DNA of 40,535 nucleotides from a virus (Duplodnaviria > Caudoviricetes): the IMG/VR virus record IMGVR_UViG_3300044455_000042, positions 1 to 40,535 of that record. The stretch is one strand, 5' to 3'. The translations under genes were made by a program, and so were the position numbers. The notes under the pieces are model-generated. The model was not told the DNA's origin and did no database searches. It worked only from the letters and a program-made list of their open reading frames with translations. This document shows, piece by piece, positions 964 through 40,487 of this stretch (within the stretch, counting starts at the first letter, position 1; the number at the start of each line of letters is the position of its first letter).

Positions 964-996
964 CAGCCTGCGCGCCCCCTACGCGGAACTGCGCAC

Positions 997-1026
997 TTGC
1001 AGCCCGCCGGCCGCCCATGGCAAGTT
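997..1026 (+). promoter_or_regulatory. Possible sigma70-type promoter for the rightward RNA/moron operon
   Basis: TTGCAG (997-1002), 18-nt spacer, TGn-CAAGTT (1018-1026); predicted start near 1033 where the RNA stem begins. Confidence 0.35.
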
Positions 1027-1032
1027 CCATCG

Positions 1033-1093
1033 CCGGACGCGGTTAGGGTAGCTCCCGAATAGCCGGTCCGTTAACCGGCCACGCCGTGTCCGG
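1033..1093 (+). ncRNA. Three-way-junction RNA, candidate antisense/leader regulator
   Basis: 10-bp stem CCGGACGCGG (1033-1042)/CCGTGTCCGG (1084-1093) encloses hairpins GGG-TAGCT-CCC and GCCGG-TCCGTTAA-CCGGC; AGGGTA and TCCGTTA are complementary to TACCCT (1094-1099) and TAACGGA (1102-1108). Confidence 0.6.
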
Positions 1094-1118
1094 TACCCTC
1101 GTAACGGAGAGGAACCCC

Positions 1119-1355
1119 ATGCCTGAAGAGATCACCCTCGACTTCATTGCGCGCCAGCTCGAGCGCGTCATCGCTGAACAGGGGAGCATACGCGACGACT
1201 TGCGCGTGCTCACCGCCATGACCCTGCGCGTCGACCACGGGCAGGCACGCACGGCAACCGACATCCAATTGCTGACCGACGAGGTGCGCGCGATGCATCA
1301 GCAACACGCGCGTTTCCATGACCGGCTGGTCAAGGTCGAGGAGGTGCGCTCATGA
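1119..1355 (+). CDS. Small coiled-coil hypothetical protein
   Basis: SD GGAGAGGA before ATG 1119; heptad-like MPEEITLDFIARQLERVIAEQGSIRDDLRVL. Confidence 0.8.
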   Translation: MPEEITLDFIARQLERVIAEQGSIRDDLRVLTAMTLRVDHGQARTATDIQLLTDEVRAMHQQHARFHDRLVKVEEVRS

Positions 1356-1813
1356 TCAGCCGCATCGCGCTCGCCCTGACCATCGCCGCGATCTCGACCA
1401 GCGCAGCCGCACAATCCAACCGCAAGCAGCCAACCTGGGACGACCTGCTCAGGCCGGTTGAGGCAAAGACGAACCCGAACGTCCCGATCGCACCACCCGC
1501 TCCAGCCGTCGCCGCTCAGCCACTACTGCCTCCTAGCATCAGCCCGGCGAACAGAGCTCCCCCAGCAAATCCCAATACAACGTTATTGGACGGCTGCGTC
1601 ATCAGCGCCATCGGCCGACTCCCGAAAGCAGAGGGGCTGCGTGTGCTGAAATCCTCATATGAACATTTCGAGTCTGGTCAGGTGTACCAACTCCAATACC
1701 AACTCTGGACCATATCGATCTCGGTTGATCTCCACGGACGCCAAGCCAACTATCAGTGGCGTTGCCGCATTAATGATAACAGTTCGTCCGAACTACTGCT
1801 CGGCGCCATGTGA
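1352..1813 (+). CDS. Exported protein (moron) with signal peptide and Pro-rich linker
   Basis: ATGA overlap with upstream gene, SD GAGGAGG; signal peptide MISRIALALTIAAISTSAAA; two Cys in the C-terminal domain. Confidence 0.75.
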   Translation: MISRIALALTIAAISTSAAAQSNRKQPTWDDLLRPVEAKTNPNVPIAPPAPAVAAQPLLPPSISPANRAPPANPNTTLLDGCVISAIGRLPKAEGLRVLKSSYEHFESGQVYQLQYQLWTISISVDLHGRQANYQWRCRINDNSSSELLLGAM

Positions 1814-1828
1814 GGAAAGCCGAGCAAT

Positions 1829-1863
1829 AAAAAAAGAGCCGCCCGGCGGTGACCGGGCGGCTT
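1829..1863 (-). terminator. Rho-independent terminator ending the late operon (possibly bidirectional)
   Basis: Hairpin GAGCCGCCCGG-CGGTGA-CCGGGCGGCTT with an A-tract at 1829-1835 (U-tract on minus) between convergent genes. Confidence 0.85.
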
Positions 1864-12827: not shown

Positions 12828-13426
12828 TAGCGCAGCCTCACGATGATTGCCGGATTGCGTTCACCGCCGGCGACGGTCTGGTACGCGAACGAAACCTTGG
12901 CGACATTGCTGAACTTCCGCGCGAGCGTTGCCACGGCCTGGTAGACACCATCAGGCGCCTGCGGCGATGATGGCGGCCGCCCCGTTTTCTTGTCGCCCTC
13001 GAGCTTGCGCGCATATGGCGTCGTGTTGACGAAAACATATTCCTGTGCAGGCGCCGGTGCGTTCACGCTCGTCTCTGTCCCATCAGCAAACAGGACATGC
13101 GAACTGGCGTAGTGTCCGGTCAGGCGTGGCGAGTGTGTTTCCAGTTGCTGGTAGATCCAGGCCAGTGCCTCGTTGACCAACTCGAACTCGGCGCGGATGA
13201 CGCCGTCCGGCTTGACGCTGGTGAGTGCCGCGCCCTCGCGCCCGTCGACATAGACCTCGTATGGCGGAACGACGCCGAGAACCCGCTTGTTTTGTGTCTT
13301 GGCTTCCTCGATCGTTTCGGCCGCGAATGACGCCAGCATGGCCGAGCGCGCCTTCGGCCCGAGATCCTCCGACAGAAATAGCTCGAGGTCACGACTGATC
13401 GGCTGCACGCGCGTTTTCAGCGCCAT
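12827..13426 (-). CDS. Tail completion/neck protein (HK97 gp10-like)
   Basis: SPRLTGHYASSH, FVNTTPYARKLE and SPQAPDGVY motifs. Confidence 0.75.
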   Translation of the reverse strand: MALKTRVQPISRDLELFLSEDLGPKARSAMLASFAAETIEEAKTQNKRVLGVVPPYEVYVDGREGAALTSVKPDGVIRAEFELVNEALAWIYQQLETHSPRLTGHYASSHVLFADGTETSVNAPAPAQEYVFVNTTPYARKLEGDKKTGRPPSSPQAPDGVYQAVATLARKFSNVAKVSFAYQTVAGGERNPAIIVRLR

Positions 13427-13770
13427 CAGGCGCGCACCGTAAGTTCATAGCCGACCAGCACCGCTTCAACGCGGCGGGCCTTCACCTCGTAGACGGTGTA
13501 CTCGATGCCATCCTGGTTGATCAGGTAGTCGCCTATCTCGACATCCGACGGCAGTCCGTTGTCGAACAGCGCCTGCGAATAGATGATCGCGTTGACATCC
13601 TGCTGCGCGATGCCGCCGGTCAGTTCCTTGCGCTCGCCTTTCCACATGCGCCCGACCGTGGCATAGGTCGCATCGAGCCGGCCCGTGCCGGTGCCGGTGA
13701 TGCGGCGGATCGTGACGGGCTCGTGCAGGTTGTCCCGGTAGAGTTGCCTCGCCTCGGTCGCCAGCGTCAT
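13426..13770 (-). CDS. Head closure/head-tail joining protein
   Basis: 114 aa; VTIRR...ELTGGIAQQD...IGD pattern; follows the adaptor gene. Confidence 0.7.
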   Translation of the reverse strand: MTLATEARQLYRDNLHEPVTIRRITGTGTGRLDATYATVGRMWKGERKELTGGIAQQDVNAIIYSQALFDNGLPSDVEIGDYLINQDGIEYTVYEVKARRVEAVLVGYELTVRA

Positions 13771-14456
13771 GCCAGCACCGGCCTGCGATAGCCGTCACGC
13801 ACCAGCGCTGACTTGATGTCTTCCGGCACGATGGTGTCGGTCTTGGTCTGGTCAACCCAACGATCAAGCGTAATCACACCGGGGATCTCGACGTGCTTCG
13901 TGTTTGGATCAACCGAGCTGCTGGCGCTCAAATGATAGATGCCGACGAGTTGCGATGCGTACATTTTTAGATCGTCCGGAATGGTGTCGTAGCCGGCGGC
14001 ATATTCGACGATCACCCGGCCGCACGGCCAGTAGAGTGTCTCGTTGCCCGATATGCGTGTGAGCGACCCCATGGGAATGTCGAGATCCCAGTCATCGGTC
14101 GTCAGCTCCGTCGTGTCCTCGGTGACCGAGATGATCTCAAGCACCGGCCATCGCGCGAGATATAGCGACCCATATTGATAGCGCGGCCTGACGCGCATCG
14201 TTTCCACGAGCGTCTCGGCGTGCAGTGTGCGAGGCGCGGCGCCGCGCAGTGGCGTTGCAGTGGAATACAGCGATGCGTCATAGCCGGCGGTAGCCACACC
14301 GCAGGCTGCGGCCAGAGCCGCCGCCGCGCGCAGCCCCTGGATCGCCAGCGCCTCGTCCTGGCTGTCGTCGTCCGGCTCGAGCCCGGCCGCAACGCGCAGT
14401 TCCTCTTCCGTCAATAACTGAAGATCTGCGGCGGGCTCGGTGACGATCAGCATCAT
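13767..14456 (-). CDS. Head-tail adaptor (HK97 gp6-like)
   Basis: Start ATG 14456; LIVTEPA..LLT.EE, LYLARWPV..I.SV, VEYAAGYDTIPDDLK motifs. Confidence 0.8.
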   Translation of the reverse strand: MMLIVTEPAADLQLLTEEELRVAAGLEPDDDSQDEALAIQGLRAAAALAAACGVATAGYDASLYSTATPLRGAAPRTLHAETLVETMRVRPRYQYGSLYLARWPVLEIISVTEDTTELTTDDWDLDIPMGSLTRISGNETLYWPCGRVIVEYAAGYDTIPDDLKMYASQLVGIYHLSASSSVDPNTKHVEIPGVITLDRWVDQTKTDTIVPEDIKSALVRDGYRRPVLA

Positions 14457-15301
14457 TCGATCTCGCTCAACTCGGACAGGCCGGCGGTCGTCGGCAGCGC
14501 GTCGTAGAGGGTGATGGATTGGAGAGCGCATCCGCTGGGGTTGGTTTGAAAGGCAACAGCCGCGGTAAATGGATTGCTGGGGGGCCTGTCCGTCTCAGTC
14601 AAGACAACAGATGTCGGCGCACTCCCGTTGCACGCCAAATCAAGGCGAGCACTGGTAAGGGTCATGGCCAGCCCGTTGATCCCCGGAGCAACATTCACAA
14701 TATCCTCAATGGTGGCGTCCAATAAAGTTCCCGTGCCATAGGTGCTCGCGTTGACGTCCCCCTCCACTTCGGTAACGCCATCACCAGCCACTGTCAGGCC
14801 ATCGTTTCCGTCTGTCGATCCAACAAAAACCGAAACCCCTGCTGTATCTACCTGCTTCCACACAAAAACAGAAGTTACGTTGGAAACCATCAAGGCTCGC
14901 GCCGAGCCGATCATGGCCGGGGGGTCATCGGAAGGGACGAGCCCGTCTGCCGTAAGGTCGGAAGAATTATATTCCGTTGTGCTCCATCCGTTCTCGGTGT
15001 TCGGATCACTCCCCAGCAGCGTGTCGACCGCGACCTCGCCGTCGGCCAAGGTCCACGCGCGCCCCTGCGGGTCGCCGCCCACGAGGTCGATGTGGATCAC
15101 GGCATCGGCGGGCACCCAGTCCGGCCGTTCCCCGCCGCCGCCGCACTCTTCCTCGTGAGACATGTTGGCGCGCGCTTCATCGTTTGTCTCCCACACTGTC
15201 AACTGACCAACGAACTTGCATTCCGCGGTATCGGCCGCCCGCGCAATGGCATAGGTCGGCCAAACATTTATCCGGCCGATGTTCTTGGCTGTGATCGTCA
15301 T
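14453..15301 (-). CDS. Hypothetical virion-associated protein
   Basis: ATG 15301 in a TGATG overlap; acidic, with a poly-Gly linker and beta-rich C-terminal part that is visibly less GC-rich. Confidence 0.7.
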   Translation of the reverse strand: MTITAKNIGRINVWPTYAIARAADTAECKFVGQLTVWETNDEARANMSHEEECGGGGERPDWVPADAVIHIDLVGGDPQGRAWTLADGEVAVDTLLGSDPNTENGWSTTEYNSSDLTADGLVPSDDPPAMIGSARALMVSNVTSVFVWKQVDTAGVSVFVGSTDGNDGLTVAGDGVTEVEGDVNASTYGTGTLLDATIEDIVNVAPGINGLAMTLTSARLDLACNGSAPTSVVLTETDRPPSNPFTAAVAFQTNPSGCALQSITLYDALPTTAGLSELSEIE

Positions 15302-38853: not shown

Positions 38854-39291
38854 ATGTCGCGTCATTCGAAGCCGGTCGGGGAACACCTCTATTGCACCGA
38901 GGAAGAAATAGCCGAGTTCGTGCTTGGTCCCGGCCGACTGCGGGACTGGCGCGATCGGGTGAAGGTCTTGGAGCGGCAGGGGCTCCCGCAATTCGATCCC
39001 CTGATGGGCGGCCGATACCGGCCCGCCGTGCGCGCGTTTTTCGACCGCCTGAATGGCATCACGAATGAGGTGCTGCCGAGCAGGGCGGATCAACCGGAGA
39101 AGTGGAAGTCATGCGAACCAACGTCGTCAGTCTCCCCGACCGCGGCCCCGGCGACGCCCCGGGACTTGAATATGCGAACAGGGCAGGGGGCAAGCGTGTC
39201 CCGCTTTGGCGCGCGCCCAAGAAAGCCGTCAGACTTGGCTTCGAACCGAAGTCCGTCGCGCTCGCCGCCGACCTCTCCGAAGTCGAGCTAG
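38854..39291 (+). CDS. Excisionase-like winged-helix protein
   Basis: LYCTEEEIAEFVLG...LERQGLPQFDPLMGGRYRPAVRAFFD; directly upstream of and overlapping int. Confidence 0.7.
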   Translation: MSRHSKPVGEHLYCTEEEIAEFVLGPGRLRDWRDRVKVLERQGLPQFDPLMGGRYRPAVRAFFDRLNGITNEVLPSRADQPEKWKSCEPTSSVSPTAAPATPRDLNMRTGQGASVSRFGARPRKPSDLASNRSPSRSPPTSPKSS

Positions 39292-40487
39292 CGTCGGCAT
39301 GTCGCCGTCTCCAGGCACAGGCACTCGAATTCATTGGGAGCGGCGAAAACCGTGAGCCGAAGTTCGACGGCTCGATCAAGTCACTGTGCGAACTGTTCCA
39401 AACGCACCGGCTCGGCCCGTTCAAGCGCACGACGAACCCGGCGAAGTGGAACTCGCTCGAAACCTACACCAAGGATCTGAAGAAAATCATCGATACTGTC
39501 GGCGGCCGGCAACTGCACCGGCTCACGGCAGACGATTTCCAGGACTGGTACGAGCACTGGCGCGAGCCGAAGACGCCGGGCGGCGCCCCGCTGATCGCGA
39601 CCGCGCACCGCACCATGACGATGGTGCGGATGGTGATGCGCTTCGGCATGATGATCGAGGCGTCACCGCATTGCGGGCGGCTCGGTGCGGAGCGCGACGG
39701 TGTCCTGGCGAACATGACGTTCCCGAACGCACCCCCGCGCACCGCGATGGTCACCGCCGAGATGATCGACAAGGCTTGCGAGTTTGTCCGCAGCCGGGGC
39801 TATTTCGAAATGGCGCTCGCGTTCGCCATTCAGTTCGAGACTGCGCTTCGGCCGAAGGATGTCATCGGGGAGTGGACGCCGAACAAGGCCGGTGAACCTG
39901 ATAACGAGCCGAGCCCCTTCACCACCGCCCGCACGCGCTGGGAGCATGGCCTGACCTGGGGCGAGCATGTCGATGCCGACCTGATCATGGCAAAGCCGAC
40001 CTGCAAGAGCCGGTTCACCAAGACCGTGGTTGCCGACTGGACCCTGTGCCCGATGATCATGCGCGAGCTTGCCTTCTTGCCCAAAGAGCAGCGCGTCGGC
40101 CCGGTGATCCGGCAAGGCGACTGGCATCTGCGCCGGCGGTTCGTCGAGAACGGCGAGTCGTTCGTCGAGCGCGTGCCGGGGCGGGCGGCCGGTCGCCCGT
40201 GGAACGCGACGGTGTTTTCGTTCGACGTGATGGAGCTGTTCCGCGAGCTGGCCGAGACGGACCCGCGCTTTGTCGGCGTCACAAACCGCGACCTGCGGTC
40301 GGGTGCGATCACCGAGGCGATGAACAAGCTGGAAGGCGAGGGCATCGAGATGGGTAACGTGCAAAAGCTCTACGGCACCCACGGCGAGCGCGGAACGACC
40401 CAGCGTTATAACCGTGTTAACCTTGAAAAGTGGCGGACGATGCACACCCGGCGGGTGGCAAACCGGCAGGCGGGAGGGACATCATGA
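39111..40487 (+). CDS. int: Tyrosine integrase
   Basis: Catalytic-type residues: QFETALRPKD (R), KPTCKS (K), RDLRSGAITEA (R), GTHG (H), TTQRYNR (Y); followed by the attP-like site. Confidence 0.9.
   Translation: MRTNVVSLPDRGPGDAPGLEYANRAGGKRVPLWRAPKKAVRLGFEPKSVALAADLSEVELASACRRLQAQALEFIGSGENREPKFDGSIKSLCELFQTHRLGPFKRTTNPAKWNSLETYTKDLKKIIDTVGGRQLHRLTADDFQDWYEHWREPKTPGGAPLIATAHRTMTMVRMVMRFGMMIEASPHCGRLGAERDGVLANMTFPNAPPRTAMVTAEMIDKACEFVRSRGYFEMALAFAIQFETALRPKDVIGEWTPNKAGEPDNEPSPFTTARTRWEHGLTWGEHVDADLIMAKPTCKSRFTKTVVADWTLCPMIMRELAFLPKEQRVGPVIRQGDWHLRRRFVENGESFVERVPGRAAGRPWNATVFSFDVMELFRELAETDPRFVGVTNRDLRSGAITEAMNKLEGEGIEMGNVQKLYGTHGERGTTQRYNRVNLEKWRTMHTRRVANRQAGGTS

Follow-up and report, generated by a model that had tools for sequence, protein, structure and literature searches.

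An RNA at the head of a two-gene cassette

The 40,535-nt stretch of DNA analysed here (the window) is an entire circular record of a soil phage with a terminal repeat of 127 bases, and among its genes are those for portal, major head, terminase, helicase and endolysin proteins and for a repressor-like HTH protein. The question raised by this locus is how a structured RNA, which sits between an integrase-like region and the converging lysis genes, may act on the two overlapping ORFs that follow it. The first-pass annotation had proposed an antisense RNA of the P1/P7 C4 and P4 CI kind, both of whose arms would match the ribosome-binding region of the next gene. The RNA, ORFs 1119 and 1352 and a terminator-like hairpin (1826..1862, no strand assigned, called on the minus strand) together form an accessory-cassette layout. 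The hairpin separates the cassette from the converging lysis genes and is kept in L099, L110, L114, L123 and L124.

Fold and family membership of the RNA

The RNA (1033..1093, plus strand) is an int-alpA-type three-way junction according to the predicted fold, covariation and covariance models, with helices P1, P2 and P3 and the junction segments UAG, CGAAUAGC and CAC. In the predicted fold, P1 is formed by 1033-1043/1083-1093 (11 pairs, or 12 counting G1032-U1094), P2 by 1046-1048/1054-1056 and P3 by 1062-1067/1074-1079. The three-way junction with two hairpins described in the first pass agrees with this prediction, and the covariation seen in 60 relatives supports it: two-sided changes occur at 8/8 P1 pairs and 96.4% of helix cells are paired, the latter figure being inflated by the pre-filtering of the 60 rows for pairing. 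The fold has a z of -2.28, with 6 of 200 shuffles folding equally well. Arm 1, the P2 hairpin (TAGGGTAGCTCCC; 1044..1056, plus strand), belongs to the near-invariant core of the family; the exact insert of this type was present in P2 in 74/148 family rows, most of which came from a pattern search with the P2 stem fixed.

No Rfam match was obtained for the window at gathering threshold, nor any int-alpA match at that threshold for the close relative L033. At relaxed threshold the best match was int-alpA (RF02996), with 22.3 bits against a gathering value of 35.8 (E 0.062), and the window aligned to positions 1-71 of the model with all three helices. The int-alpA signature was found, namely the UAG and CGAAAAGC junctions and a GCNGG P3, with one junction change from A to U. 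A search with a pattern derived from the junctions uncovered 88 viral loci (66 distinct), and 17 of the 19 pattern relatives tested scored above the int-alpA gathering cut-off. Further scans added 47 metagenome, 120 genome and 103 variant-arm loci, and the named hosts of family loci include Bradyrhizobium, Pseudomonas and deltaproteobacterial bins. A structure descriptor retained 190 of 338 pattern matches (148 failed), and removal of 36 duplicates left 154 distinct rows. Six further rows were removed by P2, loop-length or flank limits, and the insertion-broken L033/L121 record was set aside. Family counts below use one row per distinct loop (n=88), with three doubtful parses (L191, L209 and L220) retained and counted as misses.

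A covariance model, R1, built from 60 relatives with none from the window subfamily, scored the window RNA at 42.6 bits (E 3e-10), the next best score being 9.5; this homology test is only partly independent because the relatives were found via a pattern drawn from the window. Judged by its sequence, the window RNA is a divergent int-alpA member. It shares with int-alpA the three-way junction, the UAG and CGAA(A/U)AGC junction, the GCNGG P3, a variable P3 loop complementary to a downstream SD-like sequence and, in several relatives, a location 3' of a recombinase gene. It falls below the formal threshold because of its J3/1 CAC, its CGAAUAGC junction and the lack of a U-run. In contrast to int-alpA, J3/1 is CAC in the window (2/88 in the family) rather than CU (62/88), there is a U in CGAAUAGC, P1 is longer, the U-run is missing and there is one target instead of two. 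The window RNA also heads an exported-protein cargo, whereas 12/71 family ORFs encode HNH, GIY-YIG, methyltransferase or HTH proteins.

The int-alpA motif, whose Rfam type label is 'Gene; sRNA', is, we presume, attributable to the Weinberg 2017 survey (PMC5737381). The name alpA is absent from the main text of PMC5737381. In the mostly open-access literature covered, one paper does no more than list int-alpA, and neither a functional study nor a mention of RF02996 was found. Unannotated members of the family, with R1 scores of 37-54 bits, are present in three cultured phages, Vibrio PS15B.2, Enterobacter Tyrion and Aeromonas 4_4512 (L370, L371 and L372), which would be tractable test systems. 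In a separate group (L267 and ~21 similar loci), arm 1 is TGTCGCACA, and what the short loop matches is not an SD-like word but AACC, in up to three copies downstream.

Probable pairing of the P3 loop with the ribosome-binding region

The P3 loop UCCGUUA (loop 2; 1067..1073, plus strand) is the variable pairing loop of the RNA, and it is complementary to its sole target in the window, TAACGGA (1102..1108, plus strand). The complementarity of TCCGTTA and TAACGGA had been noticed in the first pass, which placed the loop one base too early, at 1066-1072. Three bases of the target fall within the purine run GGAGAGGA (1106-1113), and a better-spaced SD candidate, GAGG (1109-1112), lies directly 3' of the target. 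When the 26-base tail of the window alone is considered (beginning at 1095), a 7-base loop match arises by chance in ~2 of 1000 shuffles and a 6-base arm-1 match in ~2 of 100.

Our family-wide analysis supported the loop. A complement of at least 5 bases to loop 2 was found within 45 bases after P1 for 79/88 distinct loops, against a mean of 21 and a maximum of 37 in 2000 permutations of the loop/tail pairs and 9/88 in an upstream control. When 71 lineages of <60% identity were taken, 65 had a loop-2 complement (permuted 17.9, maximum 31), and the excess holds in each downstream zone taken separately. Spacing from P1 to the first site is stereotyped, with a family median of 7 and a value of 8 in the window. 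Loop and target thus co-vary across the family, and they do so inside the window subfamily as well, which supports the earlier proposal of a structured RNA that pairs by its loop with the ribosome-binding region of the next gene. Two target sites are present for 50/88 family loops (permuted 4.5, maximum 12); the window and its subfamily have one, and so lie outside this two-copy pattern, which was seen here and is not a published criterion.

The second half of the earlier proposal was that arm 1 also pairs. AGGGTA (1045-1050) is indeed the reverse complement of TACCCT (1094..1099, plus strand). Across the family, a 6-base downstream complement to arm 1 was observed in 1/88, the window only (shuffles 1.2), and a 5-base complement in 4/88 against 6.7 in shuffles, while in the 10 members whose arm 1 differs, no 5-base downstream complement was seen. 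Arm 1 is likely to be a structural core of the family rather than an antisense element.

A two-arm contact, with arm 1 on 1094-1099 and loop 2 on 1102-1108 as for a' and b' of C4, could still have been gained by the window subfamily only. The 6-base arm-1 match is present in 8/10 subfamily sequences and a 5-base match in the other two, 1095-1099 can pair with arm 1 in all variants seen, and a variant whose arm reads AGGGTG has A1095G and retains two G-U pairs. We nevertheless consider this quite unlikely. Apart from the absence of the match across the family, the first base of TACCCT differs in L131 and L491, breaking the first pair, while arm 1 is unchanged; four of the six bases of TACCCT are explained by, or adjoin, a hairpin (P4) described below. 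Arm 1 is itself paired in P2 with a probability of 0.98, and forcing it onto the target costs 15 kcal/mol. With P1 intact, moreover, arm 1 and 1094-1099 would be separated by the full length of an 11-pair helix. A 5-pair arm-1 contact is unlikely, and the bipartite logic borrowed from C4 and CI is not supported.

Variants of the window subfamily

A near-identical cassette was found in 10/47 metagenome loci, with L491 as a more distant member. The promoter-like boxes, the RNA and the target are fixed in this subfamily, and the upstream and downstream genes differ: the gene upstream of the L110 RNA is a serine recombinase, and the gene 3' of the RNA and target is ORF1119-like, ORF1352-like or another. 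L491 has the loop GTCCGTA and the target TACGGA, with 6 bases matched against 5 in either crossed combination with the window. Its loop and target are shortened together, P4 and arm 1 are kept and the first base of the arm-1 site is changed. Depth-based difference and loose-end tables point to a further compensated pair, loop CCGTAA with target TTACGG, in two soil contigs from two studies.

Of 21 loci from one further search for the subfamily, the sole member was the L033 record already known; a second search gave no member among 46 loci, and a third gave one new member, L491, among 70. No subfamily member was found in 401 Bradyrhizobium-order genomes, which gave 2 ordinary family matches, and protein-led searches of viral contigs yielded 1 and 2 loci, all lacking the RNA. 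In one soil metagenome, the cassette (1000-1140) is covered by 23 contigs of high summed depth with several variants. In L033 (G001:C1 ~13050-15200), an insertion-sequence-like element lies between RNA and target and splits the leader from its gene; the break point falls inside 1094-1100 and the target continues beyond the element. Its TnpB-like gene is one that we take to be of IS607 type.

A predicted hairpin over the Shine-Dalgarno sequence

Fold prediction places the target in the loop of a hairpin, P4 (1097..1112, plus strand), in which CCTC pairs with GAGG of the SD and the loop GTAACGGA displays the target. In the window the P4 pair probability is 0.71-0.74 and the target is mostly unpaired. 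The site TACCCT would then be mostly the 5' strand of P4, not a target of arm 1, its CCTC segment (1097-1100) being the predicted anti-SD strand. In 42 of the 57 family members with two sites (57/86), the sequences on either side of site 2 make a stem of at least 5 pairs (permuted 12.9, maximum 23); because these flanks pair, the SD-proximal target is displayed in a hairpin loop. Equivalence of the window site is ambiguous, since it has the distance of site 1 from P1 but a structure like that of site 2. Both P4 strands are present in 10/10 subfamily sequences, and the stem has no covariation of its own because it is invariant within the subfamily. It should be noted that ViennaRNA does not score kissing loops, and forcing the loop-target pairing as a nested one costs ~10 kcal/mol. 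The possibility that site 1 is enclosed across the family by pairing of the linker ahead of it with the SD was considered and rejected, the mean stem being 4.41 against 4.36 in permutations.

P4 is the lowest-energy fold in 3/10 subfamily sequences; in the other 7/10 it is an alternative SD hairpin with a downstream C-run. This would fit an activating RNA, whose loop takes 1102-1108 and breaks the competing hairpin (GGAGAGG with the C-run) that buries the SD, and IsrK offers a precedent for activation (PMC4825925, excerpt). The window, L114 and L491, however, lack the C-run, and GAGG can still pair in P4 once the competing hairpin is broken, so that we regard activation as very unlikely.

Predicted transcript start and proposed mechanism

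A promoter is predicted at 996..1026 (plus strand), with a CTTGC(AG) -35-like box, an 18-base spacer and a TG-n-CAAGTT extended -10-like box. CTTGC is invariant in 10/10 aligned subfamily sequences, and the spacer is variable. Of 50 TAnnnT hexamers counted across the family, 24 have their 3' end 3-8 bases ahead of P1, with a peak at 6. A consensus promoter scan of the window did not pick up 996..1026. From the conserved boxes, transcription is predicted to start near G1032; the RNA appears to open the transcript, leaving no room for an upstream target. In the window, P1 is followed by neither a U-run nor a terminator. We favor a leader in cis because the RNA seems to lie at the first base of its transcript, its spacing to the target is stereotyped and a terminator after P1 is missing.

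The best explanation, which we judge on balance probable, is that an accessory transcript of two genes has the RNA, a one-target form of int-alpA, as its 5' leader, and that this leader limits translation by intramolecular loop-loop pairing. Transcription would begin near G1032, and P1-P3, supported by covariation, would fold. P4 would then form, with 1097-1100 pairing the SD GAGG at 1109-1112 and TAACGGA held in the loop, and the loops of P3 and P4 would kiss over 7 bases, a pairing supported by co-variation in a geometry that we infer. The kissing contact would stabilise the weak 4-pair stem of P4 and keep ribosomes off ATG 1119, and translation of ORF 1352 would presumably follow by coupling. 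Arm 1 and CGAAUAGC would act as a scaffold or binding surface, not as antisense. The direction of the effect, repression, is what the pairing model would predict. With the usual upstream decoy target of the family missing, the one-site form would be a damper and not a two-state switch.

An alternative is that a short RNA (~1032-1093), made by processing or early termination, acts in trans on read-through transcripts, its own or those of an incoming phage. Dose-dependent silencing or immunity specificity would then be expected, as with IsrK and CI. A released RNA would fit the U-rich run found after P1 in 33/88 members and the Rfam int-alpA consensus, whose 3' end is a U-run. The loops diversify together with their targets, as expected of immunity specificity, and IsrK has both a short and a long active isoform (PMC4825925, excerpt). 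The window, however, has neither U-run nor terminator after P1, and its loop and target hardly vary among subfamily phages that differ in integration and cargo genes, unlike a determinant of heteroimmunity. The short, fixed spacing also suits a fold in cis, and we find action in trans rather unlikely.

A more far-reaching scheme, which we offer as very doubtful, sees int-alpA as a kissing-loop translation switch that is portable and can be re-programmed, with a fixed junction that senses a protein or ligand. The window subfamily would have lost the decoy and recruited arm 1, converging on a C4-like bipartite form that gates an exported cargo beside the attachment site.

The locus supplies a natural one-site form, compensatory changes within its subfamily and, for the SD-proximal target, a measured surrounding hairpin. 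One-site and two-site leaders would offer a direct contrast for the decoy model, and a leader of 90 bases whose 6-7-base code can be swapped would be a handy part for translation control.

Comparison with C4, CI and IsrK

The Rfam comparison with C4, c4-2 and isrK proposed in the first pass came out negative: the C4 (RF01695) and c4-2 models gave no match at gathering threshold, and none of the three was among the four matches at E up to 10. C4 of P1/P7 resembles the window RNA as a branched RNA that pairs near a ribosome-binding site on its own transcript (PMC12197685, excerpt). C4 carries its antisense sequence in two regions, a' and b', with the target motif a1b1 as a separate element (PMC2864571, excerpt). 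The window RNA, in contrast, has one co-varying loop, no conserved upstream target and no recognisable antirepressor downstream. No second, upstream target of the a1b1 (C4) or seqA (CI) kind was seen, as there is no plus-strand AACGG before 1103 in the window. The operon of the window is not a further case of C4-type immunity.

Like P4 CI and Gifsy-1 IsrK, the window RNA probably heads a phage transcript and pairs with a downstream sequence of its own transcript; IsrK, too, starts at its promoter. Processed CI causes termination by binding to an upstream site, seqA, and a downstream one, seqC, and IsrK pairs over ~30 bases and activates (PMC4825925, excerpt). Pairing in the window differs in involving 6-7 bases from one loop.

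Cargo genes

ORF 1119 (1119..1355, plus strand) encodes a 78-aa protein that homologue searches place in a widespread unnamed family, likely a coiled coil. It has 12 homologues and 804 representatives at E<=0.001; the family proteins are 70-80 aa long, and the relatives form unnamed atlas clusters in Pseudomonadota. ORF 1352 (1352..1813, plus strand), which overlaps the stop of ORF 1119, encodes a 153-aa protein with a signal peptide (judged by eye), a proline-rich linker and a two-cysteine domain of cystatin/NTF2-like fold, as seen from alignment and a structure model. There were 31 matches counting itself. The model has a pLDDT >89 over residues 71-150; structure alignment (VIA-align) gave a best Z of 6.4, within the common range, with an rmsd of 3.2 over 84 aligned residues, and Foldseek returned no match at E<=0.001 in the PDB or viral libraries.

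C4 and P4 CI act on icd/antirepressor or kil/replication genes. Neither ORF has a significant Pfam or PHROG match, in line with the earlier remark that the downstream genes are not recognisable antirepressors. Across the family, 71/77 downstream ORFs were scanned with Pfam, and 13/71 had a match (6 HNH, 2 GIY-YIG, 2 methyltransferase, 2 HTH and 1 integrase N-terminal); no antirepressor family was found among the 71, of which 58 are without a Pfam match. From its position, we would guess at an envelope role of the cargo in lysogens. An ORF in L491 (1040-1453, minus strand) shares with the window (1352-1470) the same signal peptide and a 'TWxDLLKPxxAKT' segment, and its C-terminal domain is unrelated, hinting that signal peptide and segment may be a modular leader for exported cargo.

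The integrase-like region and upstream repeats

The 461-aa ORF at 39102-40487, whose end crosses the circular join, gave no match in Pfam, PHROG or PDB sequence searches and was therefore assigned by eye; from its catalytic-type motifs we read it as a putative tyrosine integrase with its attachment site. Long inverted arms come next, 3' of this ORF at 100-232; they are 53-base arms, 72% complementary, and have the look of an attachment site. Farther toward the RNA, a perfect 11-pair hairpin (664-687) carries an 8-base complement of arm 1, GCTACCCT at 661-668, which is found in no aligned relative and lies upstream of the predicted start; the hairpin is likewise absent from relatives.

The TCCGTT repeats at 267-286 and 629-648 were considered as extra targets or antisense copies and rejected. 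They align with the 3' ends of serine-recombinase genes of relatives, and their exact 20-mer has no match among viral sequences, for which reasons we take them as relics. Two partial copies (250-318 and 612-727) align with the 3' end of the large serine-recombinase genes of relatives, and each has an imperfect inverted repeat, a possible relic attachment site. This suggests that the present integrase-like gene may have replaced a serine recombinase in the window phage.
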